The position numbers and the translations under genes are program-made. From Promethearchaeota archaeon (GTDB lineage Archaea > Asgardarchaeota > Lokiarchaeia > Sigyniarchaeales > SOKP01): a stretch of 64,000 nucleotides of DNA. Each line of letters begins with the position of its first letter. Within the stretch, counting starts at the first letter, position 1. Shown here piece by piece: positions 6 through 26,669 of this stretch. Below the pieces are notes generated by a model. The model searched no databases and was not told the DNA's origin. It saw only the letters and a program-made list of their open reading frames with translations. Location of the stretch: positions 1 to 64,000 of the forward strand of contig JAEOUA010000007.1 of assembly GCA_016839555.1 (NCBI GenBank), written 5' to 3'.

Positions 6-1444
6 ATAGCAAAGAATGTAGCTTCAACAAGAAGATTGAAATTTTTGTCAGTTTTAGCGTGGATTTATCGCGAAATACATAGCAAAGAATGTAGCTTCAA
101 CAAGAAGATTGAAATTAGGCAATAACAGGCGCGAGAATCGTTCCCATTGCCATAGCAAAGAATGTAGCTTCAACAAGAAGATTGAAATCTTGTGTGGCGT
201 AGTATTGCTCGGAAAGGGATTTACAGAATAGCAAAGAATGTAGCTTCAACAAGAAGATTGAAATTTGGGAGTGGGAGACATCAAGTAATCACTTAGTGAT
301 ATAGCAAAGAATGTAGCTTCAACAAGAAGATTGAAATACATCTTGGGGCGGGTTTAGAGAATTTAATGATAATAATAGCAAAGAATGTAGCTTCAACAAG
401 AAGATTGAAATTTAAGGCAATTTGTAAATGCTCTTAAAAGAGCATTTCCATAGCAAAGAATGTAGCTTCAACAAGAAGATTGAAATAAAAGAAACGCGAT
501 AATTAGTATTGAACACTTAGCCGATAGCAAAGAATGTAGCTTCAACAAGAAGATTGAAATTCATTATGGACTCACCCTTTCGCGTTCTTTATCTATTAAA
601 TAGCAAAGAATGTAGCTTCAACAAGAAGATTGAAATCTATAATTCCCACCAATTGATCCTATATGTGTCCAAATAGCAAAGAATGTAGCTTCAACAAGAA
701 GATTGAAATAAAGGAGGTTCGATAATTAGCATTGAACATTTACACAATAGCAAAGAATGTAGCTTCAACAAGAAGATTGAAATTTAAAAGAGGTTTATAC
801 TATTGTAGAATTATGGAAATTATAGCAAAGAATGTAGCTTCAACAAGAAGATTGAAATTCAGAGGGAGCATTTGTGGGAGGGGTTAAAGCAGCAATAGCA
901 AAGAATGTAGCTTCAACAAGAAGATTGAAATTTAACATTATGATTAGTATCATAAGGCTTAAATTGATATAGCAAAGAATGTAGCTTCAACAAGAAGATT
1001 GAAATTCCTTATTGTCTCGGGTTTATATTGCATTGCCATTTTTTTTATAGCAAAGAATGTAGCTTCAACAAGAAGATTGAAATTCAAGAAAAGGAACTTC
1101 TATCAGCATTAAAAAAAACAGATAGCAAAGAATGTAGCTTCAACAAGAAGATTGAAATCTTAAAGAAATTTATACTACTGTAGAATTGTGGAAATATAGC
1201 AAAGAATGTAGCTTCAACAAGAAGATTGAAATCCAATCAGAGTTATCTACATTATATAACATTATTTTATAGCAAAGAATGTAGCTTCAACAAGAAGATT
1301 GAAATAGAGGAGGAGGTGAAAAATAAAAAATGAGTCAAGCAATAGCATAGAACGTAGCTTCAACAAGAAGATTGAAATTCAATTGTTTCGAAAATTGCTT
1401 TTAAATCATCTTTATATAGAAGAGAATATAACTTCAAGAAGACT
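6..1444 (+). CRISPR. CRISPR array, trailer end; runs off the left edge. 19 repeats of 37 bp, a degenerate 20th, 19 spacers of 36-41 nt
   Basis: Repeat starts at 6,79,152,228,301,375,450,524,600,673,747,822,895,969,1047,1122,1196,1269 (all exact), 1342 (2 mismatches) and 1416 (degenerate). The CTTC-AACAA-GAAG hairpin followed by the ATTGAAAT handle, and decay at the right end, give + orientation. Confidence 0.99.
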
Positions 1445-1640
1445 CGGTTATCTTTTTTCTATCCTACAAATAAAATTTACCTTTAGAATATAGATCTTTT
1501 TACCAAATATTTGAGCAATACTATTATGTCTTTTCATAATTTAAAACCACTAAAAATTTTATTTTTAGAAATATACCTTTCAAATATTTAAAAATCTTAA
1601 TAATCCAGAATTACAATTTTCTTAACTTTTATGCAAGAGA

Positions 1641-1898: not shown

Positions 1899-3782
1899 CT
1901 ACCCTGTTTTATAAATTTTCTTCTTTTTAGACGGTCCATATTTATACAAATAAAATTCCTTTGTTAAAATATTCAATGGGTCTAAATTCTGAACGATTAA
2001 TGGTTTGAACGCACTTGCCTCCTCATTTACTTCTCTATTTTGCTTGAACCATTCAAAAATATCATCAGAATTAGTATTATTTGGGTATTCTATAGCAATA
2101 TTAGGTTCAATATTTTCTTTTATTTGAAAATTATTTATTTTTTTATAGATTTCCACAACTTTTTCATTAAATTTTAATTTCTGAAGAAAATTTTTAGTAA
2201 TATTTTTAACCTTCTGTATAATTTCGGTATTTTCTTGAATAATATAGTTTAGGTTAGAATTTTCATGATTTTTAAAATCCAAAAATATTTTTCTTAAAAA
2301 TAAATTTTGAACTGAAATTTGAACGCTTCCAAGTCCCAGGGGTTTGCCCATTCCTAATTTATGACCGCATTCCTTATTTCCTCCAATTTCTAAAGTCCAG
2401 ATCAACTGTTTTAGTTCTAGTTTAGATATGTTTTTAAAATACACATAAAATTCGAATTCAATACCTTTTTCTAAAGGTCTTACGTAAATATTCCGGTCAG
2501 AAACATTTTCTATTGATTCATAATTATCTTGATTAAAATCACTGTGCCAATAGAATTTTCTACCGTTAATTCTAGGATTATATTCTCTTAATAATTCATA
2601 ATTATTATATCCTCTCCACTTTTTGATCGCAAAATCGTAAGTCCATAGAGCGATATTATTTTCGGGCTTTTTAAGATAAAACTCGAAACTTGAAATTTTT
2701 GGAGTAGAAAGTTCAGGTAAGTATCCTGGTGGAAGATAATAGGAATCATCTAATTTCTTAATAGATTTTGCATCAGTAAATCTAATTCGTGATGAGACTG
2801 AATATTCGTTAATTCCATCCTTTCCTATATTTCCGAACAAAAAACATCCGGAACATAAATTATTCGGAGAATCACAAGGGTGATAATCTTTTATAACATC
2901 TTTTATTTTGTTTCTAAAGATGATTCTCCCGATTTGAGCAAAATCTAAATAATAATGATTACCAATTTTTTGATAATATATTAGTATGCGTTCTTTATTT
3001 TTCCATGATTCAAAATCTTTCGAAGACAAATCTATTTTTTCGTATCCTTGATGAAATGAATTTAAGCCATTATTGATTCTTGAATCTCGATAATACTGAA
3101 GATTATTATATAAATTATAAACATATAATTCGTTAACGCAAATAGGGTTTTCATTTATTTCATAAAAAGCGTACTCATAATTTTTTCCGTTATCCTCACC
3201 AAAGGGTTCTCCATGGTGTAAATATCCAGTTTCCCCTTGATAATTAATACTTTCACCTTCTTCTAAATCTTTGAAATGCCTTTCATAATCCTCCAAATCG
3301 ACTTTAAAATAATTGCAAGGTTGGATATACCATTTGTTATTATTATTATAATATAGAATGCCTGGTTTTTTAGGTTTTGGAAATCTATAATAGGTTATTT
3401 TATCTATATCCGTTGTAGAAAGGCAAGAATTTGTCAAAGCTTCATACGAATTTCTAATAACCCCTCTAATTTCGCAACCTGGAATAATAGGTTCTTCTGG
3501 AGGGAGCGGATCTTTTTTATCGACAAGGTTTTCATACGAAAAAAAATCATAACTATTACTATCCCTTATATTTGTGAAAGTTTTATTGTTTGAAGAATTA
3601 GGTATAAAAATTGGTGTCATTGTCTTTAAAGAACATCTTATCTTTCCTGTGTATTTATATTTATTAATATCCTTTTCTAAATCTTTTTTATTAAATCCTC
3701 TGGAACATCCCTCCTCTATTAAGGGTATAAAATGATAGGGATTTATGAATTTCTCCTCAGTTTTTATGTATTTATTTCCCAT
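1899..3782 (-). CDS. cas7: Type III-D Cas7-group RAMP with large insertion (TIGR03986-like)
   Basis: NPYHFIP N-terminus, IIPGCEIRGVIR, CxxC..LFG, GRKFYWH, and G-rich loop KLGMGKPLGLGSV. Confidence 0.9.
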   Translation of the reverse strand: MGNKYIKTEEKFINPYHFIPLIEEGCSRGFNKKDLEKDINKYKYTGKIRCSLKTMTPIFIPNSSNNKTFTNIRDSNSYDFFSYENLVDKKDPLPPEEPIIPGCEIRGVIRNSYEALTNSCLSTTDIDKITYYRFPKPKKPGILYYNNNNKWYIQPCNYFKVDLEDYERHFKDLEEGESINYQGETGYLHHGEPFGEDNGKNYEYAFYEINENPICVNELYVYNLYNNLQYYRDSRINNGLNSFHQGYEKIDLSSKDFESWKNKERILIYYQKIGNHYYLDFAQIGRIIFRNKIKDVIKDYHPCDSPNNLCSGCFLFGNIGKDGINEYSVSSRIRFTDAKSIKKLDDSYYLPPGYLPELSTPKISSFEFYLKKPENNIALWTYDFAIKKWRGYNNYELLREYNPRINGRKFYWHSDFNQDNYESIENVSDRNIYVRPLEKGIEFEFYVYFKNISKLELKQLIWTLEIGGNKECGHKLGMGKPLGLGSVQISVQNLFLRKIFLDFKNHENSNLNYIIQENTEIIQKVKNITKNFLQKLKFNEKVVEIYKKINNFQIKENIEPNIAIEYPNNTNSDDIFEWFKQNREVNEEASAFKPLIVQNLDPLNILTKEFYLYKYGPSKKKKIYKTG

Positions 3783-4465
3783 TATATTTCCTCTCCATTT
3801 TGATCAAAAATATTGCATAATCTTGCATCAAAAAATTTGATTAAACCTAATTTATTATATAAGAAATAATTGTGAATTTGATATTTTAATGGTAAATTTG
3901 AATTGGTAATTAAATCAAGAAAATTGATTTCAATCTGAGCTCCTTTTTTATTAGAAAGATAGTAAGCATCTAAACCTTCGATATTTTCTTTTTTTACTCT
4001 TTTTCCTTGAATATAATGGAATTCTTCATAAACATTTTGATCTTTCCATTGAAGATCATCTTTCTCTATATTCTCCTCTACACTTTGATCTTGCCTATAT
4101 CTCCAATAAAATCTATTATCAATCCGCCATATATGGATTTCTTTATTTTTATTAAAAAAGCGAGCTTCAAGAAGATAATTTGGCATTAACACTTCATGGA
4201 GTTTCTTTTTTTTCCTAATTTCGTCCAAATAAAAGGTGAATAACTTGACTTTGTGATAGAAATACATTAAAAAATAATTTCTTGAATTATTTTTATCGAC
4301 TAGATCTATAAGATCTTTTGTAATATTTGCTTCTAATTCACTAATTTTACAATTTTGTTTATTTAAAATACAAGATTTTACTGTTTTCACTTTGTTAAAT
4401 TTAAATGTTTTTAAATTTGCTTCTTTATTATTCATATCGATCCCTCCTATTATTATCTTTTCCAT
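3782..4465 (-). CDS. csx19: CRISPR-associated Csx19 (TIGR03984-like); true start probably 4435
   Basis: LLEARFFN..EIHIWR and C-terminal DARL motifs; position between cas7_2x and cas7-insert. Confidence 0.8.
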   Translation of the reverse strand: MEKIIIGGIDMNNKEANLKTFKFNKVKTVKSCILNKQNCKISELEANITKDLIDLVDKNNSRNYFLMYFYHKVKLFTFYLDEIRKKKKLHEVLMPNYLLEARFFNKNKEIHIWRIDNRFYWRYRQDQSVEENIEKDDLQWKDQNVYEEFHYIQGKRVKKENIEGLDAYYLSNKKGAQIEINFLDLITNSNLPLKYQIHNYFLYNKLGLIKFFDARLCNIFDQNGEEI

Positions 4466-5870
4466 CAGATTTTAATCTCCGAAAGATCTCATTCATGAAT
4501 TTATTACAGTAATCTTCGAATTTCGCTTCAGTGAGTATTTTGTGGTTAATGCTCATTTCTTTTGATTCTAGAATCCCTCGTCCTACAGATGTAGTTCCAC
4601 CAATCGATTGGAATCCATTCATTAGCTCTTTTATCCCAAGAAGGATCATTCCTACTTCATACTTTTTATAGTCCTTTATAGTAATGTGTAAATCTGTGGA
4701 TCCCCCATATGAAGCGCAATCGGTAAAGAGAGCACCATCGACTGCTCCACCTGTAAAACGATCTATTTTATTGTGAGTGTATTTCATTAGAACTCTTCTA
4801 TTATTTATTTTGGAGTGTTCTATATATATTCTTGATTTTCTTGATTGATTAGCTGATTGTTGAGTATCTATTGCGACAAAACCAAATAGCGATTCAATAA
4901 GATCGTTAAACACTTTATTATAGGTTTTATCCTCAATGATATCTTTGAAATTCCCATCTTTCAATAGCTCTCTCTTAATATCTCTAAAAATTTGGTAGAT
5001 AGCACTTCTTAGAGCCCCATTCCAAGATGTACCCGGAATTATACTTTCTTCATTTTCTTGAATGTGCACAATGTCAACTTCGCCAGGATCTGAAAAATAT
5101 TTGCCAATTAAGAGAGAATAAGGAATTCGAAAATTTACATGTAAAGTAAATAAATTTAAATCTTTAATATTTAATTTTTCAGCATTTAATTCATTTAATT
5201 TAGTATTTCCTTCAAAGTTCTCCCAATTTAAATTGATCCACTTCTCTAAGTCGTTTTTATCTGATAGATTTAATTTAAGAATCTCAACATCTTCTAATTT
5301 AATTTTTCCAAAGCCTCGTGTGGTCTTCGCGCCAAACTGCAATTCCCCATTTTTTAGAACAGAGAGAACTATAAACAATAAATTTTCCAATTTGGATAAT
5401 ATTTTTTGCTGATTCCGCCACAAGTTAGCTTCAAGTTTAAATTGAAATTTTGCTCCAGAATCTATAATTTCATAATCATATTTACCCATTTTCTGAGCAC
5501 TTTTATATAAATATTCATTATCTTTGGTTCCAATTTTAATACCGTCCCTTATAGAGATATTGTAATTCTTATCAAAAGGTTCTACGTCATAAAAAATTAA
5601 ATTACTTTGACACCCGTTTCCATTTTCTTGAAATCCAAATATTTCATTTAAAAAATCTTCATTTTCTTCATCCAAAATATGTGTTAGATAAGATCGAATT
5701 GTTCCAGCAACACTTGTCCCTGGAATTATAACCTCATTTAATCCATTTCGTATAAGATCATTATCTGTAAATATGCCATTTCCTGATCCTAAAGATAGGG
5801 GTGATATTAGGGATAATATCCCTTTGACAAATATTTTATGGGAAAGTGGATTTGTGTTCGTTTTATACAT
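4428..5870 (-). CDS. cas7: Tandem Cas7-Cas7 fusion (Cas7_2x, Csm3-like)
   Basis: Two RAMP units: IIPGTSVAG...GAKTTRGFG and IIPGTSWNG...IDRFTGG...GGTTSVGRG. Confidence 0.9.
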   Translation of the reverse strand: MYKTNTNPLSHKIFVKGILSLISPLSLGSGNGIFTDNDLIRNGLNEVIIPGTSVAGTIRSYLTHILDEENEDFLNEIFGFQENGNGCQSNLIFYDVEPFDKNYNISIRDGIKIGTKDNEYLYKSAQKMGKYDYEIIDSGAKFQFKLEANLWRNQQKILSKLENLLFIVLSVLKNGELQFGAKTTRGFGKIKLEDVEILKLNLSDKNDLEKWINLNWENFEGNTKLNELNAEKLNIKDLNLFTLHVNFRIPYSLLIGKYFSDPGEVDIVHIQENEESIIPGTSWNGALRSAIYQIFRDIKRELLKDGNFKDIIEDKTYNKVFNDLIESLFGFVAIDTQQSANQSRKSRIYIEHSKINNRRVLMKYTHNKIDRFTGGAVDGALFTDCASYGGSTDLHITIKDYKKYEVGMILLGIKELMNGFQSIGGTTSVGRGILESKEMSINHKILTEAKFEDYCNKFMNEIFRRLKSDGKDNNRRDRYE

Positions 5871-5899
5871 TATTTTATTGTTTTTACTATTAATTTAAA

Positions 5900-8164
5900 T
5901 CACCTTTTTTTAAGATTCCATTCTAATATTTTTAAAACCTTTAAGTAATAATTTTTATAATATTTAAAGAGATTAAATGTAAAAAGTTCATTTTCAATAA
6001 GGTCCGAAAATCGATTATTTAAGGTATTTAGTATGTCGTTAGTTACTATTTTCTTGATCTCAACATTGAATGTAATATCTTCTATATTTTGATTACTTGA
6101 TTTCAAATAGAGAAGATTATGAAAAGGTTTAAATTTTTTAAATCCGTTCTTAGATAATGCGTTAAATTTATTTTTTAAAGCACTATCATCATCTAAATCT
6201 ATAATAAGTGTTTTTAATCTTGTTAATTCTGAAATTGAATAATTTCTCTTATATTTACTAGACTTTGTATAGGCTAATTCATTAACCCTGTCGATTATAT
6301 AATTATCAAAGATAGAAATAAGAAAATCTTTAATTTCTTGAAGTCGAAATTCATCTTTAGATTGATCTTTGAGCTTTGAAATATTTAATTTTAAACCAGA
6401 ATCATCCGAAAGTTGACTTAATTGAATCTTACCAAATCCTTCATTTGTTTTAATACCTAAATGTAGTTCCTTAATCTTTGAGATTTCAATTTTTTGTTTT
6501 GATTCAATTAATAAAATACTACCTTTTTTTAAAGCTGGATACTGAATCTTCGGTAGTCCCCAGATGCCTGAAAATCCTCCTACATCTATTTTATCAATAT
6601 ATTGTTTATGAATTTCAAGCGAATTTTTTTCGATGCCTATTTTATCTTCAACTGTTTCAGTTAATATTTTTGGATTGGGTTCTGGATGTCCATAGGAGTT
6701 AAGCAAAATCATATCAGATTCAAGATATATTATGAATCTATTCACTTTCTGGTCTTTTCTATTCTCCCGATTATTCTTAACAAAGTAATTTTTTATTTGT
6801 AAGATACAATTTCCATATTGAGCACTTCGTGATTTGCCAAGTTGAATTTTAACTAATGTTGAATTTTTTTCTTCAAAAATTTCAAGTAATTTTTTAATGT
6901 AATAAGATTTTCCATAGATCTTACCACTGAAATGATAACCAGGATCGATAGATTCGTATTGAAAAAAATTTTGTTCTCCCTCTAGAGCGGATCCTATACT
7001 TTTATCCTTAGAACTTTGAAAATGATAGTTTACTGAGGTGTTCAAATTAACTAAATCACTCTTATTTACCTCGAAAATTTTATTATTATAGCAAAAACCT
7101 TCCAGATCACTAAAATTTTTATCGAGAGGTAAATCTTGATTAATCAAGTTAAGAAACTCATCCCCATATTTTAGTTTACATAAGGATTTTGGTATTGGTA
7201 AAGATCTATTTTTTATTTCTTTAAATGAATCGATAGGATAAAAATTGGAAAAGATTACATTATCCTCGAGAAAAATTTCTTTAAAATCTTGATTTTCATG
7301 AGCATTTTTTTTTAAACGATTAATTTTAATGAATTTATAGGCTAACACACCAAGTATCATAGTTCCTGGTATAAAGAAGGCTGTTTTATTTTTAAGCCCA
7401 ACGTAAGGAGTAATAATTAGAGGTTCGGTGTTAAATAAATCAAAATTTAATTCAACATAATTCTGGTCATTCAAATTCAAAATTTCTTCAATTAAAGAAG
7501 AAGATTTTTTTTCTTGTATGTCTGGTTTGTTTGTGTTGCTATCAGGTTTTTTTTCTATTTTCAGATTTATGTTTCCAAAACCTCTATTCCTATTTGATCC
7601 AAAATGTCGCGAAACACTACATATCTTTTTTAAATCTTCAAAGAAATCATTATCATCTTCAATCTTTTCGTCAGATATATTAATAGTAAACATAAATCTT
7701 AACCCTTTTTTTAATAATCTGCTCGTTCTTAACGATTTCTCATCAGCAACACCTGTCATATAATTCTCTATTTTGGTCTGCGTTCTGATAATGGTGAAAA
7801 GATCAATTATTCTCTCCCTACTGAATATTATATTTAATTTTTGCTTAGATTCTAAGTCAATATTATTAGATTTAATTGATTGTAATAAATTTCTTATCTT
7901 CCAGTAATTTTTAATATAACCATTTGATATTCTAAAAAACTCTTGGTACATTCCAACTTTACCAAATATCTCATCAACATCGAAATTGAGATAGAGTTTA
8001 AGATAAAAAGCATTTTTCCTTAAGATTCCTTTAATTCTCCGAGCGGGAATATAAGGAATACCAAATTTATCTGTAGTGATTTCTTTACTAATATAACGTC
8101 CATACGATTCTGCTTGTCCTGGAAGCGTATCGGATTTTAGTTCCATCTCTAAAGTAAAATCCAT
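5900..8164 (-). CDS. Cas7-Cas5(Csx10) fusion with helical C-terminus (putative Cas11)
   Basis: GIPYIPARRIKG...GSNRNRGFG (Cas7); FIPGTMILG, LGKSRSAQYG and GIKTNEGFG (Cas5/Csx10); ~130-aa helical tail. Confidence 0.8.
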   Translation of the reverse strand: MDFTLEMELKSDTLPGQAESYGRYISKEITTDKFGIPYIPARRIKGILRKNAFYLKLYLNFDVDEIFGKVGMYQEFFRISNGYIKNYWKIRNLLQSIKSNNIDLESKQKLNIIFSRERIIDLFTIIRTQTKIENYMTGVADEKSLRTSRLLKKGLRFMFTINISDEKIEDDNDFFEDLKKICSVSRHFGSNRNRGFGNINLKIEKKPDSNTNKPDIQEKKSSSLIEEILNLNDQNYVELNFDLFNTEPLIITPYVGLKNKTAFFIPGTMILGVLAYKFIKINRLKKNAHENQDFKEIFLEDNVIFSNFYPIDSFKEIKNRSLPIPKSLCKLKYGDEFLNLINQDLPLDKNFSDLEGFCYNNKIFEVNKSDLVNLNTSVNYHFQSSKDKSIGSALEGEQNFFQYESIDPGYHFSGKIYGKSYYIKKLLEIFEEKNSTLVKIQLGKSRSAQYGNCILQIKNYFVKNNRENRKDQKVNRFIIYLESDMILLNSYGHPEPNPKILTETVEDKIGIEKNSLEIHKQYIDKIDVGGFSGIWGLPKIQYPALKKGSILLIESKQKIEISKIKELHLGIKTNEGFGKIQLSQLSDDSGLKLNISKLKDQSKDEFRLQEIKDFLISIFDNYIIDRVNELAYTKSSKYKRNYSISELTRLKTLIIDLDDDSALKNKFNALSKNGFKKFKPFHNLLYLKSSNQNIEDITFNVEIKKIVTNDILNTLNNRFSDLIENELFTFNLFKYYKNYYLKVLKILEWNLKKR

Positions 8165-8166
8165 AT

Positions 8167-9861
8167 TTAAATCTCCTCCGTTGTGAGGGGTATTTTATTA
8201 TAATAGTCGATTAATTCAATTATATCATAATAGGGGGTTTGAGTCCATTCTTTAGATTCTAGTCCTAAGGCATCCTCAAGCTCTCTATTTCTCCTTTTAT
8301 TTTCCAATATAACTTCTCTTACTTTATCTTTTGAAATATGAAAGCTTTTTTGTAAGTTTTTTAATTGAGATCTAGGCCATTTTGAAGAATAGGATTTTAG
8401 ATGGTTTATTTTTTTTTCGAAATAGACCCATTCAAATCTTGAATATGTTTCGTTCTTTCCCCATTTTCCTAAAATAGCCCATGGTCTATAAAGTAAATTA
8501 TATTGTTCCATTCGTATATAATTATTATTTATTATTTTCTCTAATGCAACTGGTTTTAAACAGCCAGGGCAATTGTATTGTTGTCTTCTCATTGTCTCTA
8601 GATCAGAGGAAATACCACTGTTTAGGATTTGAAAGTCTAACCATGAAAATAGATTATCGTTGTTTTTAGTATTAGGGTTACAAATTTTTCCTTTTAATTT
8701 TGCTGATTTTGTTAATTCTTCTAAGAGAGGGTAAGATCTAGCAAAAGGAAATTTATAATTTGTCACTAAAACACCTCCAGAAATAGATATATTATTTTTT
8801 AACAAATCTATTTTATATTTCTCTTCTTGTCTCTCTTTATTTAAATTCTTGATAAAATTTTCCGCTAGCCCAACCCCCAATAATCCATGAGAAATAAAAG
8901 TTATATCATCACCACTTAAAATTATCGGTCTAATTGGAAGTAAGGATTTATAATTCTTTTTATTTTTTTCTTGCTTAATTATCTCTTCTTTTTCTAAGTC
9001 ATTTATATTATATATCAAATCAGCAATTGTCCTTCTCATCGCATTAAGAATAATAAATTCCAATTCGGTTGAAAATTTTCTGTATATGTATAAACCTCTA
9101 GCATAATCACTTTCATTTTTAATTAAATTCTTCACTAATTCCCCCATACTATTTCCATCAAGATGAACTAAAGCAATATGGTGTTCTCCTTTATGGAACC
9201 CTAACTTATCTAAATTCCTTGGAAATTCCCAATTTTTGTTCCCTTTTAGATAATTATTATTTTCAATAAGGCGATTCTCGTAATAATTTTTAGATTTTTC
9301 TTCATATTTTCTTTTTATGTATGTTGGAAAGGACAAATATTTTTGTTCACTATGAAATTGGGCCGGCAATTCTGTTTGGTTTTCCAATCTTGTAATACCA
9401 ATTCCTCCTTGAGGTTTATATTGTATAAATTGAGCTTTATTTTTATGCATTCTTCTATTTAATTTTTCTATATCCTTAGATAATTCTTTAAATAATATAT
9501 CTTGCGTTGCAACCATTATGGCTAATTCATTTCCCGTTTTTTCTAATATGTATTGCGAAAAAGTTTGTGTTACTTCTTTTTCTAATTCTTTATTTTTATA
9601 TAAAATTAACGCATTTCCTCCAGCAATATATATTGGTAATATTTCTATATCGATTTGGTTTATATCAATAACATCTGAAAAATTAATATAATTTTCTCCA
9701 ACCTTTTCTAATTTTCTCTTAAGGATTACCTTAAAATCCTCAAGGATCGATTCAATTAGAAAAGAACCACCAACATTTTCCTTTAATTTATTAGTGTTGA
9801 AGATAAAATTTTGGATACCTCTTATATCATATAAAGCTAAAGTATATTGTTCTTGATTCAT
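8167..9861 (-). CDS. cas10: Cas10, type III-D short form lacking the HD domain
   Basis: DIRGIQNFIF, YIAGGNA, HLDGNSMG, palm motif ILSGDDITF, KFPFARSY. Confidence 0.92.
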   Translation of the reverse strand: MNQEQYTLALYDIRGIQNFIFNTNKLKENVGGSFLIESILEDFKVILKRKLEKVGENYINFSDVIDINQIDIEILPIYIAGGNALILYKNKELEKEVTQTFSQYILEKTGNELAIMVATQDILFKELSKDIEKLNRRMHKNKAQFIQYKPQGGIGITRLENQTELPAQFHSEQKYLSFPTYIKRKYEEKSKNYYENRLIENNNYLKGNKNWEFPRNLDKLGFHKGEHHIALVHLDGNSMGELVKNLIKNESDYARGLYIYRKFSTELEFIILNAMRRTIADLIYNINDLEKEEIIKQEKNKKNYKSLLPIRPIILSGDDITFISHGLLGVGLAENFIKNLNKERQEEKYKIDLLKNNISISGGVLVTNYKFPFARSYPLLEELTKSAKLKGKICNPNTKNNDNLFSWLDFQILNSGISSDLETMRRQQYNCPGCLKPVALEKIINNNYIRMEQYNLLYRPWAILGKWGKNETYSRFEWVYFEKKINHLKSYSSKWPRSQLKNLQKSFHISKDKVREVILENKRRNRELEDALGLESKEWTQTPYYDIIELIDYYNKIPLTTEEI

Positions 9862-15475: not shown

Positions 15476-15502
15476 TATTATCATATATAATATATATAAT
15501 AA

Positions 15503-15831
15503 AATAAAGAAAATATAGCTTCAACAAGAAGATTGGAATGTAAATACGATCTTATTCCTGGAAATATAATCAATAATAGCATAGAACGTAGCTTCAATAA
15601 GAAGATTGAAATATAACAATATTAGTAGGATCATCTAGCCAATTACCTATAGCAGAGAATATAGCTTCAATAAGAAGATTGAAATTTGTGATTAATAATT
15701 TGATTAACTAATTTTGGACAAATAGCAGAGAACGTAGCTTCAACAAGAAGATTGAAATTAGAGAAAGGTTCCGAATGCCATGTTCTCAGAAAAAATAGCA
15801 GAGAATATAGCTTCAACAAGAAGATTGGAAT
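15503..15831 (+). CRISPR. Mini-array: 5 variant repeats, four 36-nt spacers
   Basis: Repeats at 15503, 15576, 15649, 15722 and 15795 with an exact 73-bp period; same family as the main array. Confidence 0.95.
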
Positions 15832-16670: not shown

Positions 16671-16989
16671 ATTCAAAGAAATGTCTTTTGGTGATATATT
16701 TACCCCAAAGTCCTTAATCTTTTTTATGAAGTCATTAAATACTTTTTGACAGAAAAATCCCAAATTTAGATTTAGAAATGTCTCATAGAATGTAGAACTT
16801 CCTTTAAATTTGATTTCGATGTTATAAAGAGTACGGCGAGGGGTGATTATAAAAAAATTGAATATTTTGGATAATACGATAATACTCTTAATTTTTGAAA
16901 TCTTTCTGGATTGTCTTTGAAAATTTCCTTGGTTTTATCAAACTCATCAAGAATTACTACGAGTTTAAAATCTGCTTTTTTGACATTTT

Positions 16990-17584
16990 AAAATTTTCTA
17001 ACTTAGCCAAGAAAAGCCCCTTATTATTCCACGTTTCTTTCGATTGGGGATCAATTTCAAGTGCTTTATCATAACATTCAAAAGCATCTTTATACTTTTT
17101 TAGGGCTATTAAAGCATGCCCTTTATTATACGTTGCTCATCTATATTGTTGGTCAATTGCAAGCGCTTTATTATAACATTCGATAGCAGCTTCTTGTTTT
17201 CCTACCTTGGTTAATACTATTCCTTTATTATTCTAAATTTCCTTGGATTTTGAATCGAGTTCAAGCGCATCATCATAGCATTCAATGGCAGCTTAATCCC
17301 TACTTAATTTAGCCAGCGTCATTGCTTTATTATACCAAGCTTCTTTGGTATTTGGGTTGATTTTAAGAGCTTTATCAAAGCATTTGATGGCTTTTTTAAA
17401 GTTTCCTAAGTTATTTAATGCAACTCCTTTATAGATCCAAGCTTTATAAGCGTTTGGATTAATATTAAGAGCCTTATCAAAGCATTCAATGGCTTTCTTA
17501 TACTCTCCTAATTCAAATAAGGGCGCTCCATTATTGATCCAATCCTTCTCGAGAGATGTCATAATCTTATCTTCATTTTTCCAT
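16990..17584 (-). pseudogene. TPR-repeat protein pseudogene
   Basis: TPR units (AIECFDKAL, AWYNKA, NNKGIVL, AFECYDKALEIDP) continue past several stops. Confidence 0.85.
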
Positions 17585-18002
17585 AATTATCCCCTTAGTT
17601 TGGAGTCTTCGCTTCACTTCTAATAATTTCTCTTTCCTCTTCCTTTGAAATATGGTTATTAATAAGAAAACGTTATATAAAAAGAGTTCTCTTTTGCCCA
17701 ACTGTCTGGAATTGTTGCTAATTTCAATCTTTATCGGATAAAAAATCTTGATATCATTAGATTATATCTAAAAATTATTTAAAAAAAGAATGTTCATTTA
17801 AGATTATTGGAAATACTTCTGGAATAGAGCATTTAGAAAAATACTTACTCTCAAGTGAAGAACTTACTGTACAAGAATTAAGATAATTGAATCCAGAAGA
17901 TAATAAAATTTTAGATCCCCAGAAATTAATCCAATTAAAAAATCAAATGATGATTTACAATATTTTTTGAAAATTACATAATAATAATATCATGATCATT
18001 CT

Positions 18003-18404
18003 TTAATTAGATTTATTTGACTGAAATCTATAATTCATTGAAAATAAATTACCAGATTTATATAATTTACATAATAAAGGAATATCGTGTTCCGGCTCTC
18101 CGATCATATTGCTTTTATATCCTTCTTTTAAATCTCTAGGATGAAAATGATGCGGTCTAGTGGAAATATTCCATCTATCATCATAATTATCAAACCTACA
18201 TCTATCTAATTTAATTTTAGAAAAGATTATTGAATAACTATATTCGCCATAATCATTATATTGAATGAAAATGAGATTCCTATCTCTTAATCGAATCTTG
18301 ATTCTTGATAATTTAGGTTGAAAAAATAATTCTTCGATTGAATCACCAAAATGTCTTTCTATTATTTCTTTAGCATTTTTTAATTTTTGTTCATGAACCG
18401 ACAA
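18003..18404 (-). CDS. DUF6516/TumE-like toxin
   Basis: YSYS..RFDNYDDRW..STRPHHFH resembles the DUF6516 RWDN..PHHxH motif. Confidence 0.6.
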   Translation of the reverse strand: MSVHEQKLKNAKEIIERHFGDSIEELFFQPKLSRIKIRLRDRNLIFIQYNDYGEYSYSIIFSKIKLDRCRFDNYDDRWNISTRPHHFHPRDLKEGYKSNMIGEPEHDIPLLCKLYKSGNLFSMNYRFQSNKSN

Positions 18405-18422
18405 AGTACGAGCTCCTTGTAT

Positions 18423-18668
18423 TTACTTGTTTGAATTCCAATCTTGTTTCATTTGGTACGTCTCATCTCTTTCTTTCAATAACTGTCTTAACGTAATTGC
18501 ATCGGGTTCAGCTTCTTCTATTGTACCATCTCTTGCATGTTGTAAAAACAGCTCAGGATTCGTATAATCCCATTTCGTTAGAATTTTGTCAATTTCCCGA
18601 TTAAGAAATCTGAGTTTGTAATCTATAAGTTCTTCCAAGGTTTCTCTCTTTACTCGAATCATGGTCAT
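18423..18668 (-). CDS. Putative cognate antitoxin
   Basis: 81-aa helical protein immediately upstream of the toxin-like gene. Confidence 0.55.
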   Translation of the reverse strand: MTMIRVKRETLEELIDYKLRFLNREIDKILTKWDYTNPELFLQHARDGTIEEAEPDAITLRQLLKERDETYQMKQDWNSNK

Positions 18669-18939
18669 TTTTTAATTTTACTTACTTAAATATGTTAAAA
18701 TTAAAATAAATACTTATATAGAAATATAATTATTTTAAATTCTTTCAAACTAATAATAATTCTCCAAGCATAAATATCTATTCCTCCAAGTTATTCAAAT
18801 TATCCTTTGTTATTCATTGATACTAACATAATTTCAAGATTTACTGGACTTGTAAGAAATATTAATTTCTTAACTAACCTAGATTAAAGGTTATATTTTT
18901 TGTAAGAAGAGAAAAATAAAAAAGATATAGAAAAGAATA

Positions 18940-19517
18940 ATGAGTAAAAATTTAAAATATCTAGATACATCATCTATAATATTATCTGACATCAATTTAC
19001 CCAATGAATCAATTCTATATGAATATCGTAATCTTTCCGCTATTTCAACAAAAAAAGATATTCATTAATAAAAAATGATGAATCATCCACTCAAAAATTT
19101 GCTTTTCAGGAATATTATGAATCCTCTAAATTAGAAGAACTATCTAAAAATTCATATAAACCAAATATAACTTTTAATGATAATATTAAAGATGAAATGT
19201 ATCAAAAAGAGACCTTTTTGAGATTTATTAGCGAAATCGAGAGGTGTTTGTTAATTTTTGCTAACTTCTATAAGATATCATTTAATGCAGAAATACATTT
19301 TCAGCAAGACTGGGAAGTTAAAGATGTAAAAAATATTATCCTTCAACTTAAAGTTTTTAATATTTCCTTTAAAGAGGAGTTGTTTATTTGGAAACAATTA
19401 TCTCATTTTATTAGAAAAGTTTTAAAGATGTTTGAATTCAATTCTATTTCTGAAGAAGAATTGGATGATTATATAAATTATAATAAAGATTTCTATATTA
19501 AAATAAATTTAGAATAG
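18940..19517 (+). pseudogene. Hypothetical HEPN-partner gene split by a frameshift in an A7 run (19050-19056)
   Basis: The ATG-18940 frame stops after STKKDIH; adding one A joins it to the 19197-19517 frame. Confidence 0.55.
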
Positions 19518-19526
19518 GAGATTTTT

Positions 19527-19907
19527 TTGGCATCTAATTTTAACCCAGAATTATTCCTTGATATAGCGAAAAAATTATTGAATATAGAAAATTTGGATGA
19601 AAAAGGTAAATTTAGAACCTCGATAGGGAGGGCTTACTATTCTGCTTTTTTATTGGTTAGAATTAAATTAGAAAGAAAAGGAAAAAGATTTGGTACTGAA
19701 GCTCAGCATAAAGAAGTTAGGGACTTTTTAAAAATTATTCTTATAAAATTTTTAGCTGATCTTTTAAAAGCGTTGTTTGATTATCAAGTAGATGCTGATT
19801 ATTATCTTACTAAATCTGTTAATAAATTAATCAATCGGGAGCTCTGTGAGAGATGTATTACAATCGCGGAGGAGATTATAAATAATATCAATGTAATATC
19901 ATCATAA
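19527..19907 (+). CDS. HEPN-domain protein (UPF0332-like)
   Basis: RTSIGRAYYSAF, H.EV and xVDADY motifs. Confidence 0.8.
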   Translation: MASNFNPELFLDIAKKLLNIENLDEKGKFRTSIGRAYYSAFLLVRIKLERKGKRFGTEAQHKEVRDFLKIILIKFLADLLKALFDYQVDADYYLTKSVNKLINRELCERCITIAEEIINNINVISS

Positions 19908-20211
19908 AAACTGTTAAATAGTTTAATTTTATTTCTTACTAAGAAATTTGAAATTAATGAAAGTTCAGGTAAGATTGGAATCTTAATTATTTTTAAAGTA
20001 ATTTAATATAATCTACTTTTTAAGAAACATCAGCAGTTCTTATAAATAGCAAAAAAGATAATAGCAAAAAAATAACTTTTTTAGAAAATTGAAAATATTT
20101 TATTACATATATTTTTCCCTTAAATTATTTATAACTTTATTAACCTCTGTTACTAAATATAATATAGAATATAAGAGAGAAAGAATATAACTTCAACGAG
20201 AAGATTGAAAT
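19646..20211 (+). repeat. Copy 1 of a ~560-bp direct duplication (HEPN 3' part, leader, CRISPR repeat)
   Basis: Highly similar to 21583-22138. Confidence 0.95.
20175..20211 (+). CRISPR. Solitary degenerate CRISPR repeat
   Basis: GAGAGAAAGAATATAACTTCAACGAGAAGATTGAAAT, 29/37 to consensus; hairpin stem and handle intact. Confidence 0.85.
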
Positions 20212-20387
20212 TCATTCCAGAAAATATTATATATTGAATTTAATTCCACTAAAAATTTACTCTTGATCTTGATTAAATCCTTCCAATTAAAAGTTAAAGA
20301 AAAAGTTTTAAAATAATAAAAATAAATATTCCTTCTAAATTTAAATACTTATATCTATTTACATAATTTAAAGAAGCAATTTAATTT

Positions 20388-20843
20388 TTGAGCTATAATA
20401 TGAAAAGACCTCAATATGATTTAATTTCAATTGAAGATCTAAAACAAAAAGTAAATCAAATTTTTCAAAATCATAGTGAAATAATTATTGCATATTTATT
20501 TGGATCTTATGCTCAAGGATATCAAACTAAATTTAGTGATATTGATTTGGGAATTGTTTTAGAAGAAGATTTCAAAGAACCCTCCCTTTATTTTGCTCAA
20601 TTAAGTTATAAAATCGAAAAAGCGTTTAATTGGCGAGTAAATGTTGAGGTTAGAATATTAAATAAATGTTCTCCTAGGTTCCTATTCCAAGTAATAAAAT
20701 ATGGGAAAATTATTTACTGCAAAAATTCTAACTTCAAAGATGAATTTGAATTAAAAGTAATTACTCAATATATTGATATTAAACCGTTATTAAATTATTT
20801 TGATAATCTTTTTCTCAGAAAGGTTTATGGGGATGAGAGTTAA
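20388..20843 (+). CDS. mntA: MntA-type minimal nucleotidyltransferase antitoxin
   Basis: YLFGSYA...SDIDLGI (GSx10DxD). Confidence 0.9.
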   Translation: MSYNMKRPQYDLISIEDLKQKVNQIFQNHSEIIIAYLFGSYAQGYQTKFSDIDLGIVLEEDFKEPSLYFAQLSYKIEKAFNWRVNVEVRILNKCSPRFLFQVIKYGKIIYCKNSNFKDEFELKVITQYIDIKPLLNYFDNLFLRKVYGDES

Positions 20844-21276
20844 TCCAGATGTAATAATAAAACGCTTTGAATATCTTAATAAGTTATTAGAAGAATTAGA
20901 AAGCATCAGAAAAATTACAAAAGATGAATTTTTAAATAATTTTTCAACAATTTTAGGGGCCGAGAGAGCTTTAGTATTATCCACCAACATTTGCATAGAT
21001 ATTGGAGCACATATTTTATCAATAAATGATGTTAGCAAACCTGAAACTTATAGTGAAATATTTGAAGATTTAATGAAATTAAATATTATAGATAAGGAGA
21101 TCGAGGAAAGTTTAATTAAATTCGTTGGTTTGAGGAATTTACTCGGTCATTTATATACAAAAGTAAATAATGAGAGGGTTTATAATATTATTCAAGAAAA
21201 TTTGTCTGTTTTTTATTCTTTTAAGAATCAGATTCTAATGAAATTCAAAGATCAATTAAAAAAGAACAATGAATAA
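20833..21276 (+). CDS. hepT: HepT/DUF86 HEPN RNase toxin
   Basis: RNLLGHLY (Rx4HxY); overlaps the mntA stop. Confidence 0.9.
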   Translation: MRVNPDVIIKRFEYLNKLLEELESIRKITKDEFLNNFSTILGAERALVLSTNICIDIGAHILSINDVSKPETYSEIFEDLMKLNIIDKEIEESLIKFVGLRNLLGHLYTKVNNERVYNIIQENLSVFYSFKNQILMKFKDQLKKNNE

Positions 21277-21582
21277 ATATTGAATTCAATAAATTTATTT
21301 TTAATTCTTTCTCCGTTTGCCAAAAGTGAATCCAAATTTTTCAGAATAATAAATATTTAAGCTAATATAGAATCAATATCTTAGGGAAACTCTTCTCTTG
21401 TTATTTTTTAAAAATCAAATGAGGTTGTTATATTATTTAGTTCTCTTGCTTTTCTGCATGCAAATCCATAATCATATGTATTCTTTTTAAACTTTTAGTT
21501 TGAAGTATTGAAAGAGCTTTCTATTTATAAAGTATTGAAGAAAGTTTTATAAGAATGTTGGTGGAGAGAATCAGATTAAAAA

Positions 21583-22138
21583 TTTTTTATTGGTTAGAAC
21601 TTTATTAGGGAGAAAAGGAAAAAATTTTGGCACTGAAGCTCAACATAAAGAAGTTAGGGACTTTTTAAAAATTATTCTTATAAAATTTTTAGCTGATCTT
21701 TTAAAAGCGTTGTTTGATTATCGAGTAGATGCTGATAATTATCTTACTAAATCTGTTAATAAATTAATCAATCGGGAGCTCTGTGAGAGATGTATTACAA
21801 TCGCGGAGGAGATTATAAATAATATTAAAGTAATAGCATCATAAAAACTGTTAAATAGTTTAATTTTATTTTTTTACTAAGAAATTTGAAATTATTGTAA
21901 GTTCATGTAAGATTGGAATCTTAAATATTTTTAAAGTAATTTAATATAATCTACTTTTTAAAAAATATCAGCAGTTCTTATAAATAGCAAAAAAATAAAT
22001 TTTTTAGAAAATTGAAAATATTTTATTATATATATTTTTCCCTCAAATTATTTACAACTTTATTAACCTCTGTAACTATATTATACTATATATATAATAA
22101 GATAGCAAAGAATGTAGCTTCAACAAGAAGATTGAAAT
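21583..22138 (+). repeat. Copy 2 of the ~560-bp duplication; includes a 5'-truncated HEPN pseudogene at 21590-21844
   Basis: Highly similar to 19646-20211. Confidence 0.95.
22102..22138 (+). CRISPR. Solitary perfect CRISPR repeat
   Basis: 37/37 to the main-array consensus; no second repeat follows. Confidence 0.97.
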
Positions 22139-22435
22139 ATGTTATCATCGTAAGAGGTTAAGAATAAATTATTATATCAATATATTGTAGGGGGGCTTTA
22201 AATGTTCTAATTTTTTTTTCATCGAGAAATTTAAACATATTAAAAATTTAAATAAAAGTTAAAATAGGTTCTAAATCATTCTAATATAAATTGAAAATGA
22301 GAAGATTAAATTATAAATCAAAAAAGATTATCAATTAATAGCGAAAGAATTAATTTGATTTACAAAATAAAAATTTTTTGGATAAATTACTAAACAAAAT
22401 ATTATACGTAAGGGTAAATAATAAAGAGGAATTAT

Positions 22436-22720
22436 ATGACAAATATTGAAGAGATAAAGAAAAAAGTCATTCCAATTTTACAACATCATGGAGTTAAAAG
22501 GGCAGGGTTATTTGGTTCGTTTGTTAGGGGGGAAATGAAAGAGGATAGCGATATTGATATATTAGTAGAGATTGAGGAAGATATTAGTTTACTTGATTTT
22601 ATAGGTATTAAATTGGAGATCGAGGAAGTATTGAGAAGAAAAGTGGATTTAGTGGAATATAGTACAATTAAACCACTTCTTAAAGAAAGAATATTAAGTG
22701 AACAAGTGGAGATTCTATGA
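22436..22720 (+). CDS. mntA: Minimal nucleotidyltransferase antitoxin
   Basis: [20 protein letters not shown]. Confidence 0.92.
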
Positions 22721-23070
22721 AAAGGAATATAACGGTTTATATTGAAGATATCTTAGATAGCATTAAAAAAGTAGATGAATATACAAAAAATATTACTGAA
22801 CAGAATTTCTATAAAAATACGCAAGTCCAAGATGCTATTTTGAGACGATTAGAAATCATAGGCGAAGCAGTAAAGAAAATCTCTCAGGAATTTAGAGATA
22901 AATATCCAGAAATCCCTTGGAAACAGATTGCAGGAATGCGAGATATTCTTATTCACCAATATTTTGGAGTAAATTTAAAGCGAACTTGGAAGGTTATTAT
23001 AGAAGATATTTTTGATTTGAAGAACAAAATGCTAAAAGTGAAAAAAGATCTTGATGAAAACAAATGCTAA
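22717..23070 (+). CDS. hepT: HepT/DUF86 toxin
   Basis: [27 protein letters not shown]; ATGA overlap with mntA. Confidence 0.92.
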
Positions 23071-23238
23071 TAAGATATTCTTTATTTCTTTAATTGAAAT
23101 TGCTTGACAATCGTTTTTTTAGATAAGAGATAGTTATTCAATTAGGAATCGCCCCGTGGGTATTAAACAATAAAACTACTCACTTAAGATGCTTTATTCT
23201 TTTTTCTTTATTAATTTAGCTTTTATTTTTATTTTAAA

Positions 23239-23348
23239 GTAACAGAGAATTTAGCTTCAACAAGAAGATTGAAATACAAAAGCAAAAAAATCTAAATGAA
23301 GATAATCTTCTATAGCACAGAATATAGCTTCAACAAGAAGATTGAAAT
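23239..23348 (+). CRISPR. Mini-array: 2 variant repeats, one 36-nt spacer
   Basis: Repeats 23239-23275 and 23312-23348. Confidence 0.93.
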
Positions 23349-23398
23349 GATGTTTTTGTGAGATAGGAATTTATAATTTATTAAATAATCAAATTTAA

Positions 23399-23884
23399 AT
23401 GTTCAAATGCAGTTTATATAATAGGATGGAAGAAAATAATAAGAAACCTATAGATAATAAAAGACTTGAACGTTACATTGAGAAATTAGAGCATTTCAAC
23501 AAATTAGCGGAGAGGCTCGATAATTGGACAGAAGAGGTTGGCGAAAAAGGATTTCTAGCTTTGGATTTGAAAGATCAATTTGCAATTTATCATGCGTTTC
23601 AAATAATAATTGAAATAATAACCGATTTAATTGCAATGACCGTTAAGGATTTAAAGATTAAACCAACAGACGACTATACGAATATCATACATTTAAAGGA
23701 ACAAAACTTCCTAACCGAAGAATTGACTGAAAGTTTAAGGAAGCTAAATGGGTTAAGAAATGTTATAGTTCATGATTATAATGGAATTGATGAATTATTA
23801 GTGTACAGAGGAATAAAAGAGAATTTCCATTTTATTAAACAATTTTATAAGGTGATGCGAGAATGGTTGCAGAACAAATATTAA
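23399..23884 (+). CDS. hepT: HepT/DUF86 toxin (start probably 23426)
   Basis: GLRNVIVHDY. Confidence 0.88.
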   Translation: MFKCSLYNRMEENNKKPIDNKRLERYIEKLEHFNKLAERLDNWTEEVGEKGFLALDLKDQFAIYHAFQIIIEIITDLIAMTVKDLKIKPTDDYTNIIHLKEQNFLTEELTESLRKLNGLRNVIVHDYNGIDELLVYRGIKENFHFIKQFYKVMREWLQNKY

Positions 23885-24264
23885 AACAGATTAGACGAGA
23901 TTTTATGCCCATTCTTAAAAAAAAGAATGTATTAGGGTTAATTTTATTTGGATCCCATGTCAATGAAACGCAAACCAATCGGAGTGATATAGATCTCTGC
24001 GTAGTAGCGCCTGAAGAGGATCCATTTGAGCTCTATTCTCTTTTTTCGATAAAAATTGACTTATTTTCAAAACAGTATGATATCAAATTTTTTTCAGAAT
24101 TACCACTTTATCTACAAATAAGAGTTATAGAAGATGGTATCATAGTTTATTCCACAGATGAGTTAGAATTATACGAATATTTTTATCATTTCCGAAAGTT
24201 ATGGACAGATCAGAAGCACCGGCAGCAACTCTCTAGGGAAGAAATGCTCTCTCTATTGGAATAA
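23863..24264 (+). CDS. mntA: Nucleotidyltransferase antitoxin (toxin-first gene order)
   Basis: ILFGSHV...RSDIDLCVV. Confidence 0.88.
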   Translation: MVAEQILKQIRRDFMPILKKKNVLGLILFGSHVNETQTNRSDIDLCVVAPEEDPFELYSLFSIKIDLFSKQYDIKFFSELPLYLQIRVIEDGIIVYSTDELELYEYFYHFRKLWTDQKHRQQLSREEMLSLLE

Positions 24265-24484
24265 AGGAAAAATATTAGGATTTTCTAAAAAAACTTAATT
24301 TTATCCAATAAATTAAAAATTATTTAAGTTATAAAATTAAATTTCTTTTTTGAGAAACAAGTTCGAATCGGAATAAATACATTATGCGAGAGCAGGGCTA
24401 GAACCATCGGATATTGTCTAATGCCAGAACTCTGCATTTGGGAGTATTAATCCATCATTCTTTCGGGTGTGGTAGTTTAAATAA

Positions 24485-24521
24485 ATAGCTGAAAATTTTC
24501 CTTTATATAGAAGATTGAAAT
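24485..24521 (+). CRISPR. Solitary degenerate CRISPR repeat
   Basis: ATAGCTGAAAATTTTCCTTTATATAGAAGATTGAAAT, 27/37; exact length with both ends conserved. Confidence 0.7.
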
Positions 24522-24713
24522 ATAAAAACAAGTATCAAATTTTTGAATTTTAATCAAATGATAACAGAAGATTATGTAAACAATACTCGATACTGCTCTT
24601 TATTAAATAAGTTTAATATAAATTTCAAAATATAAAATGTATTTATATAATGAAGTTATGTGTTAATAATGACAAGAGATAATGTTAAATATTTATTTTT
24701 CTTACTAGAAAGT

Positions 24714-24935
24714 ATGAATGTTGGAAAAATAAGTAAGAAGGGTCAAATTGTGATACCTAAAGAAATTAGGGAACGATTCGGGATAATGCCTGGTGATGCG
24801 CTTATTTTCAAGATTCAAGATGATAAAATAATAATAGAAAAGATCCAGCAGAAAATGTCGGAGATTTTAATGAATAGCAAACCCATAGAAAATAGCCTTG
24901 ACTTTCAAAGAAAACTTCGTGGGGAATGGGAATGA
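24714..24935 (+). CDS. vapB: AbrB/MazE-family antitoxin
   Basis: KISKKGQIVIPKEIRERFGIMPGD. Confidence 0.9.
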   Translation: MNVGKISKKGQIVIPKEIRERFGIMPGDALIFKIQDDKIIIEKIQQKMSEILMNSKPIENSLDFQRKLRGEWE

Positions 24936-25351
24936 AAGTAAATCTTGATACTAATATTTTTATTGCTGTTAAAAATCAGGAATCACATTTTGAATATTGT
25001 AAAAAAATTCTTGATGAAATTGAAAATAAAAAATTTGATGCGGTAATGTCTACAATAGTATTTATGGAAGTTCTTGTGGGGTTTTTTCAAAATAATGAGC
25101 AAATCGAAGCAAATAAATTCGCTAGCAACGCAATACTTAATTATAAATTAATTTCTGTGGACCATGAAATCGCACGCAGAGCGGCTAATATAAGGGCTCA
25201 GTATAAGATTAAACTTCCAGATGCGATAATTTCTGCTACGACTCTTCTTTCTGAATGTGATTTTTTTATTACCAAAAATAAGCCTTTATTAAAAAAATTA
25301 AAAATTCATAAGATCACTCCAAAAACGTTTGTAGAGGAATATATTAATTAA
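24932..25351 (+). CDS. vapC: PIN-domain VapC toxin
   Basis: LDTNIFI, E, LPDAIISAT. Confidence 0.9.
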   Translation: MKVNLDTNIFIAVKNQESHFEYCKKILDEIENKKFDAVMSTIVFMEVLVGFFQNNEQIEANKFASNAILNYKLISVDHEIARRAANIRAQYKIKLPDAIISATTLLSECDFFITKNKPLLKKLKIHKITPKTFVEEYIN

Positions 25352-25627
25352 ATCTCAATTCCGACTTAAAAAATTTTTTTAAAATCAAAATTTCTTCTAT
25401 ATGTGTTATATTTTCCATTTATCTCATATTTATAGTCTAAAATTATTATATTATCAATAATATTAAAAAAGTATTTGAATAATAATTAAAATAATAATAC
25501 TTCTTTCTATTGAATAAAAAAAAGATGATATTCGCTTATGAAGTTAATGCCTATTAATCCTTGATTATATATGTTTCAAAATAACTGAGCCATTATTTGC
25601 CGATATAGGTTTAGCTATTATAGTTCA

Positions 25628-25831: not shown

Positions 25832-25921
25832 GCCAAACAATTAATGCCATCAGATTTTTTAATATTAAAGACTATAATTATATCAATTATATAGTATTTA
25901 AAAAACAAGTGATGTAAAATA

Positions 25922-26558: not shown

Positions 26559-26669
26559 GTAGCAGAGAACAAAGCATCAACAAGAAGATTGAAATTTTTA
26601 CTAGGTATATGGTACCAAGAGACTATCCAAATAATAGCAAATACAATAGCTTCAATAGAACATTGAAAT
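26559..26669 (+). CRISPR. Mini-array: 2 degenerate repeats, one 38-nt spacer
   Basis: Repeats 26559-26595 and 26634-26669. Confidence 0.85.

Follow-up and report, generated by a model that had tools for sequence, protein, structure and literature searches.

Each component of the locus described here is already known: collapsed CRISPR arrays, standalone repeats (SRUs) that accompany toxin-antitoxin (TA) genes, and, in Sulfolobus, a single array with a long insert. In collapsed arrays (PMC8047081; Legionella I-F, PMC7056967), a leader is followed by one repeat, and related leaders diverge at the end of the first repeat. Published work describes both arrays reduced to one repeat next to the leader and recombination among repeats (PMC8047081, PMC4390879). 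In SRUs and mini-arrays with TA cargo (Shmakov et al., 10.1101/2023.03.03.530964), single repeats and two-repeat mini-arrays lie beside TA genes, the gene content is variable, filled and empty loci occur in relatives, and the repeats were proposed as recombination targets. The cargo there lies between the mini-array and the cas genes, mostly in type I-D, with promoter-matching spacers; type III mini-arrays were judged to be mostly degraded in that broad survey. In locus F of Sulfolobus solfataricus, an 899-bp plasmid-like fragment lies between two repeats (PMC4390879).

The window analysed in this study is a 64,000-nt stretch of DNA from an uncultured Loki-type Promethearchaeota archaeon with a type III-D locus. 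A relative retrieved through the HEPN protein bears the label Promethearchaeota, and other homologues have Lokiarchaeota names. It is consistent with collapsed arrays in its leaders with one repeat and in an orthologue that carries a normal spacer-repeat unit. Unlike them, it has two units that arose by duplication, one of them apparently converted by the main leader, and both lie amid several TA modules of kilobase size that are separated by further repeats. It shares the variable TA surroundings of the SRUs and differs in that the locus is type III-D, repeats recur between modules, two of them have full leaders, and no target was found. As in Sulfolobus solfataricus, long foreign DNA occupies a spacer position of an archaeal array; that was one rare event, whereas here several intact TA operons recur across the family. 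Integrons are gene-cassette arrays, TA cassettes included. The serial small TA modules, the same-strand repeated sites between them and the variability across strains are integron-like; unlike integrons, the locus has no integrase nearby, the repeated sites are CRISPR repeats, and many module borders do not coincide with them. The MNT-HEPN pairs are ordinary members of the MntA-HepT type VII TA systems by genes and motifs, and their position alone is unusual. No description of serial TA modules between CRISPR repeats was found in the literature covered, which included few subscription papers.

The type III-D locus and its repeat trail

The features of the locus are listed in Table 1. Every repeat of the locus family in the assembly, the two solitary repeats included, was on the + strand between positions 6 and 26669 of the window. 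All three MNT-HepT pairs contained the GSx10DxD and Rx4HxY motifs and the families PF18765/PF01909 with PF01934. Further relic repeats at 24554-24627 and about 25730 were not significant or not detected.

Table 1. Features of the CRISPR-cas locus and the TA island in the window
Feature	Position	Strand	Remarks
Main array, 19 repeats and terminal relic	6..1452	+	leader beyond contig start
Type III-D effector operon (cas10, cas7-cas5, cas7, csx19, cas7-insert)	1899..9861	-	
Array 2, 5 repeats, own leader	15503..15831	+	
Full-length HEPN gene (PF05168)	19527..19907	+	upstream of copy 1 leader
Duplicated block, copy 1	19646..20211	+	HEPN 3' part, leader, degenerate first repeat
AT-rich leader region, copy 1	19908..20174	+	
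Solitary repeat, copy 1	20175..20211	+	8 mismatches to main-array repeat
MNT1-HepT1 TA module	20317..21318	+	genes 20400-20843 and 20833-21276; limits from 89%-identical repeat-free homologue
Duplicated block, copy 2	21583..22138	+	5'-truncated HEPN, leader, consensus repeat; mosaic
HEPN remnant lacking N-terminal ~40 residues	21590..21844	+	
Proximal leader, copy 2	22060..22101	+	
Solitary repeat, copy 2	22102..22138	+	identical to main-array consensus, 0 mismatches
MNT2-HepT2 TA pair	22436..23070	+	in 1100-nt interval between repeats 22102 and 23239
Leaderless mini-array, 2 repeats, 36-nt spacer	23239..23348	+	
HepT3-MNT3 TA pair	23399..24264	+	
Strongly degenerate repeat	24485..24521	+	10 mismatches, 3' end retained
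AbrB-VapC module	24628..25457	+	
Degenerate two-repeat relic	26559..26669	+	end of trail

Type III-D was the only effector annotated within the window; type I genes were noted in relatives by reading of ORFs. cas1, cas2 and cas6 (PF01881) were not found in the 92%-complete assembly. The absence of cas1 and cas2 is weak evidence, since the contig breaks within the main array, and all three genes are probably missing because the far side of that array is unassembled. Sister populations carry cas1 beside the main leader. No integrase was found near the locus, and the sole PF00589 match was on another contig. A sigma-70 promoter scan gave 42 matches against 38.5 expected, with a model that is uninformative for archaea.

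Several other features of the window were recorded. Main-array spacer pairs 487-523/710-746 and 784-821/1159-1195 share 19-27-nt cores, a pattern that suggests repeated sampling of related invaders. Two more TA-like pairs without an adjacent repeat lie in the island at 18003-18668 (-) and 31433-32084 (-) (a weak TumE match and VapBC, respectively). An insertion of about 800 nt at 10145-10949, missing from sister contig L098, contains two short ORFs that by eye resemble IS630-type transposase remnants. A small membrane-protein gene has a 143-nt internal duplication (78%) at 30803-31110.

The duplicated block and its mosaic second copy

A duplication of about 560 bp ending at the 3' end of a CRISPR repeat had been proposed in the initial annotation. 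BLAST and alignment gave 90.5% identity over 571 columns between 19646-20211 and 21583-22138, and the end point of both copies was the last base of the 37-nt repeat. Within the block, the 3' two-thirds of a HEPN gene (PF05168) are followed by some 260 nt of AT-rich sequence and then by a single repeat. Similarity stopped at the next base, as annotated: past the repeat end, the copies matched at just 16/60 nt. The distinct MNT-HepT pair reported behind each copy was also recovered, with both motifs intact. No third copy was found in the 3.74-Mb, 12-contig assembly.

There are 39 differing sites or events between the two copies. Logan contigs from SRR14699980, the probable source run, were 100% identical to 18180-19736, 20643-21673 and 22087-31011 and crossed both copy 2 junctions and the left junction of copy 1; they are probably built from the source reads, which makes them a re-assembly and not independent data. 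Two of them stopped at equivalent positions within the shared block, a behaviour expected if both copies are real. No outside contig spans the right junction of copy 1 (20211/20212). A second sequencing run, also probably of the source material, contained 22172-24108. The sister metagenome contig L112 (Ga0102944) carried the MNT1-HepT1-HEPN'-leader-repeat junction, matching 20479-22138 at 90.6% with the junction into the truncated HEPN included. The copy differences, the contigs crossing the junctions and the sister junction together make an assembly artefact unlikely, and the duplication is confirmed as real.

The differences between the copies were unevenly distributed. A stretch of about 95% identity ended about 65 nt ahead of the repeat end, and the final 65 nt of the block contained 12 difference events vs 27 in 491 (Fisher p=0.0007). 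The initial 61 nt were also rich in differences (9 vs 18 in 430; p=0.003). The proximal ~70-100 nt of the copy 1 leader were homologous to other leaders of the same repeat family. In its proximal leader, copy 2 agreed at 41/42 positions with the main-array leader that lies next to cas1 on sister contig L080; the copy 1 leader matched that main-array leader at 33/43, and the proximal leaders of the two copies matched each other at 33/43. The solitary repeat of copy 1 is an old 5' variant resembling the first repeats of array 2, L102 and L112. The 4-bp hairpin and the 3' end were preserved in both solitary repeats. PWM and nhmmer scans detected no second repeat one period downstream of either, and no relic terminal repeat was detected behind them.

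Copy 2 is thus a mosaic, with its last 42 leader bases and repeat like the main array and its middle like copy 1. The L112 unit was 84-85% identical to both window copies, and the window copies were 95% identical to each other; the genes just upstream of the unit were 95-100% alike between L112 and the window, unlike the unit itself. These identities suggest that the duplication is old and that the copies later exchanged sequence with each other and with the main leader. The single difference between copy 2 and the sister main leader lies at 22086, and a Logan contig begins at 22087; this would fit an unassembled main leader identical from that point.

The left junction of copy 2 sits at a T run, and L112 has the same junction. 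No repeat or IS end was present there, and a relic repeat was not significant or not detected. For the 306 nt preceding copy 2, the genome contained no homologue, and no trace of the HEPN N-terminus was found in them. The HEPN gene is a passenger upstream of the leader, since a homologue pair in another genome has no nearby repeat. At 19786-19788, the full-length HEPN has Gln; copy 2 and L115 have the conserved Arg before the ADY motif, found in 16/18 HEPN homologues (2 did not fit the pattern). Given this replacement, the full-length HEPN may be inactive. Upstream of it, at 18911-19517, the window has short ORFs where the relative G030 (L051) has a single 192-aa ORF, and this gene matched no Pfam or NCBIfam family.

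Alleles in sister populations and borders of the TA modules

Sister contigs were obtained by a repeat-pattern scan of metagenomes, and the Ga0102944 genes were about 90% identical to those of the window. In L112, recovered by three assemblies of the Ga0102944 site, the repeat orthologous to that of copy 2 was followed by an ordinary 36-nt spacer and a second repeat. The unit therefore heads a short CRISPR array, where spacer turnover and array collapse would be expected to make alleles diverge at the repeat end. The caveat of the initial annotation, that collapse of former arrays could give the same picture, was well founded. The AbrB-VapC module (92.8% identical) starts in L112 at the base right after the second repeat; further on lie one more MNT gene, a repeat, and then a gene found on another contig of this genome. 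L112 is without the two leader-proximal modules of the window, and the MNT2-HepT2 pair is missing from the corresponding position.

Other alleles were arranged differently. L102 has csx1, leader 2, two repeats and, 16 nt on, the DNA of 25764 onward (tautomerase region); its orthologue of array 2 has 2 repeats, and the ~10-kb island behind the array is absent. L115 contains a further HEPN'-leader-repeat copy (75-78%), then 268 unrelated bases, then the DNA of 28518 onward. L090 has four repeats, a VapC remnant and then the tautomerase. What L116 has in common with L112 is limited to the terminal repeat and the trailer; in place of the TA genes of L112 it has normal spacers. Altogether, four copies of the unit of HEPN remnant, leader and repeat all diverged at the last base of the repeat, and the downstream content varied in every allele. 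Empty-site alleles had been suggested as a check: shorter alleles exist (L102, L112), but they carry different spacers and hence are not clean empty sites.

Two further sites were observed. At G000 C11:146371-146435, this genome has a repeat-free site where sister L116:1720-3196 has an array and L112 a TA trail; a second chromosomal site filled differently in sisters indicates that array pieces move between loci. L098:1-5709 has a three-repeat array and a Cmr-like operon (III-B, by eye) between the cas10 promoter region and CARF genes; the window is without them, and homology ends 31 nt from the array start.

Homology blocks shared by related genomes had internal ends within 6 nt of a repeat end in 9/35 cases vs ~5% by chance (p about 4e-5), a fraction that is inflated because most sister contigs were fetched by repeat pattern, two junctions were counted against both copies, and leader-proximal ends are expected regardless; the other 26 ends were off repeats. 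Breaks in this shuffling defence island fall preferentially at CRISPR repeats. To that extent the repeat end stands as a junction, as the initial annotation had it. Its further claim, that the alignment is the strongest sequence evidence of a rearrangement or insertion junction at the repeat end, was weakened as regards insertion by the ordinary spacer in the orthologue and by an 89%-identical MNT1-HepT1 on L129 that has no repeat: homology there covers the module as delimited in Table 1 and begins 106 nt past the repeat. The sharp repeat-end junction is real, but it is weaker evidence for insertion than had been claimed.

On L129, MNT1-HepT1, a fragment of MNT3 and the SAF gene follow one another as in the window, with no repeats, and the contig looks like a deletion product of an older, longer island. 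TA modules without repeats were found on L129, L132 and L135, and close MNT1-HepT1 and AbrB-VapC homologues elsewhere, as well as more distant MNT1 and AbrB-VapC homologues, were repeat-free, which counts against insertion at the repeat. No repeat was found at 18/18 other homologue loci checked. HepT3-MNT3 homologues had a repeat nearby at four genome loci. The genome's HepT matches fell inside the 11-kb repeat trail in 3/8 cases and outside in 5/8; for PIN matches, 1/8 was inside and 7/8 outside. Such matches are clearly enriched in the trail, though most lie elsewhere.

Exact module borders at a repeat were found for AbrB-VapC in L112 and for module plus repeat ends in G033/G027 and G033/G020. 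G033 and G027 were 96% identical through HepT-MNT and the repeat and unrelated beyond; G033 and G020 were 79% identical over 2.3 kb, up to the repeat end. These leaderless cases, together with L112/L116 and the AbrB-VapC start in L112, cannot be explained by spacer addition. In G008, G033 and G020, mini-arrays formed trails on one strand together with ParE, AbrB-PIN and other genes, and G027 had a same-strand trail of leaderless repeats with TA and other genes. In G001 (L057:1163-2039, G001:C467), an 877-nt gene insert without a leader lay between near-perfect repeats of a regular array; its gene (158 aa) is nucleotidyltransferase-like by eye and had no Pfam match. This insert is the most promising recent candidate for a gene that occupies the place of a spacer. 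Close homologues that would set its borders were not found, and the same holds for the 22139-23238 interval, for which the best homologues (67-74%) covered genes only.

Additional repeat-associated arrangements were seen by inspection. A single 123-aa gene lies between two similar solitary repeats 554 nt apart at L082:2390-3017. Another 349-nt, 90% duplication in the G008 repeat trail (L031:103-451 vs 2987-3332) starts 19 nt from a repeat. Four contigs of ~21 kb from Ga0180438 (L093, L099, L105, L108), mobile-element-like by eye, bear solitary repeats as well as two-repeat units, in both orientations and in some cases with short spacers; these contigs may be decoy or mini-array elements.

Origin of the arrangement and its meaning

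The locus is probably best read as duplicated heads of a secondary CRISPR array, collapsed, within a TA island shuffled by recombination at repeats. A segment comprising the HEPN 3' two-thirds, the leader and the first repeat would have been duplicated by illegitimate recombination. The upstream junction of copy 2 is shared with the sister, so the duplication predates the split from the sister population. Homologous exchange would later have reshuffled the copies, making the middle of copy 2 like copy 1 and converting its last 42 leader bases and repeat toward the main array. The zone behind the first repeat would be one of turnover, in which spacers are added and blocks are lost or exchanged when slippage or recombination takes place between direct repeats. 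Both arrays would thus have been reduced to one leader-adjacent repeat, fused to the TA-bearing trailer behind the last repeat used. TA modules would enter the island by their own routes and then be carried, lost or reordered in blocks that are often repeat-bounded. Given the observed break-point bias, the repeats would supply shared short homology, and the agent would most likely be host recombination or replication slippage.

Four observations do not sit easily with collapse. No alleles of copy 1 or copy 2 with spacers ahead of the same MNT module were found. Neither solitary repeat has a terminal relic repeat detected behind it. The window has 106 extra bases after the repeat before AbrB-VapC where L112 has 0, an offset that plain repeat-to-repeat deletion does not explain. 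The current-consensus repeat in copy 2 is not accounted for by pure decay.

It is possible, though unlikely, that CRISPR repeats serve as attachment sites of a gene-cassette platform, in which Cas1-Cas2 or another dedicated activity inserts TA and defence modules behind the leader-proximal repeat or exchanges them from repeat to repeat. As part of that reading, extra leader-repeat units refreshed from the main leader would open new entry points.

Integration of kilobase DNA by Cas1-Cas2, or a partner, at the leader-repeat junction as a giant spacer, with TA genes stacked behind the leader from new to old in the manner of integron cassettes, is improbable. It would account for the order behind 22102 (module, repeat, spacer, repeat, module, repeat, module, all on one strand), for repeat decay that roughly rises along it (0, 4, 2, 10, 6 mismatches), and for the missing leader-proximal modules of L112. 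The leaderless same-strand trails of G008, G033, G020 and G027, the G001 insert, the shared module and repeat of G033 and G027, and cas1 adjoining the main leader in sisters are also in its favour. However, repeat-free homologues put module borders ~105 nt from the repeat, homology ends away from repeats in 26 of the 35 cases, and L129 has the appearance of a deletion product. The identical flanking repeats expected of a young insert were not seen in the window, where repeats flanking modules have 0 vs 4 and 2 vs 10 mismatches; the near-perfect pair occurs solely in G001, and age or conversion could erase such identity. The lack of cas1 and cas2 in the assembly weighs slightly on the same side. 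Known Cas1-Cas2 complexes measure short prespacers, which also counts against giant-spacer capture. An exact search of viral contigs for both post-repeat sequences or the repeat, insensitive and with no positive control, gave no match. No evidence that CRISPR enzymes inserted the TA genes was found in this analysis.

It is similarly doubtful that leader and single repeat were kept as a promoter and Cas6 site, processing TA transcripts or making decoy or guide RNA and linking TA to CRISPR. Such a role would suit the retained hairpin and 3' end, the persistence of the unit across populations 75-90% identical, and the leader orientation shared by both MNT-HepT operons; there is a precedent in type I systems, whose standalone repeats control TA cargo (10.1101/2023.03.03.530964). 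Against it, the content behind the unit differs in every allele, cas6 was not found, and no spacer or post-repeat 36-mer matched the island beyond shuffles (15400-27000, p 0.06-0.99), a CreA/CreR-type promoter-complementary spacer included. Genome-wide, mini-array spacers gave only short self-matches among the matches listed. The sole effector found is type III-D, and in type III mini-arrays that study found neither conserved positions nor targets (10.1101/2023.03.03.530964).

An assembly artefact or strain chimera, which the estimated contamination of 6.4% in this metagenome-assembled genome and the unspanned copy 1 junction would favour, is very improbable against the 39 differences, the three of four junctions crossed by Logan contigs, the contig ends inside the shared block and the copy 2 left junction in another metagenome.

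The allele series is a more useful result than the junction itself. Homology that stops at a repeat end is not by itself readable as an insertion scar. If collapse and shuffling of duplicated array heads is the correct explanation, the locus would be a natural example, well documented in uncultured Asgard archaea, of how leaders are duplicated and converted and arrays collapse. If a dedicated enzyme builds the TA trail, CRISPR arrays would store whole genes besides short spacers, and the locus supplies defined substrates for testing such enzyme-built gene storage. A true cassette platform would mean that CRISPR arrays, in this case those of Asgard archaea, have a second, integron-like function.
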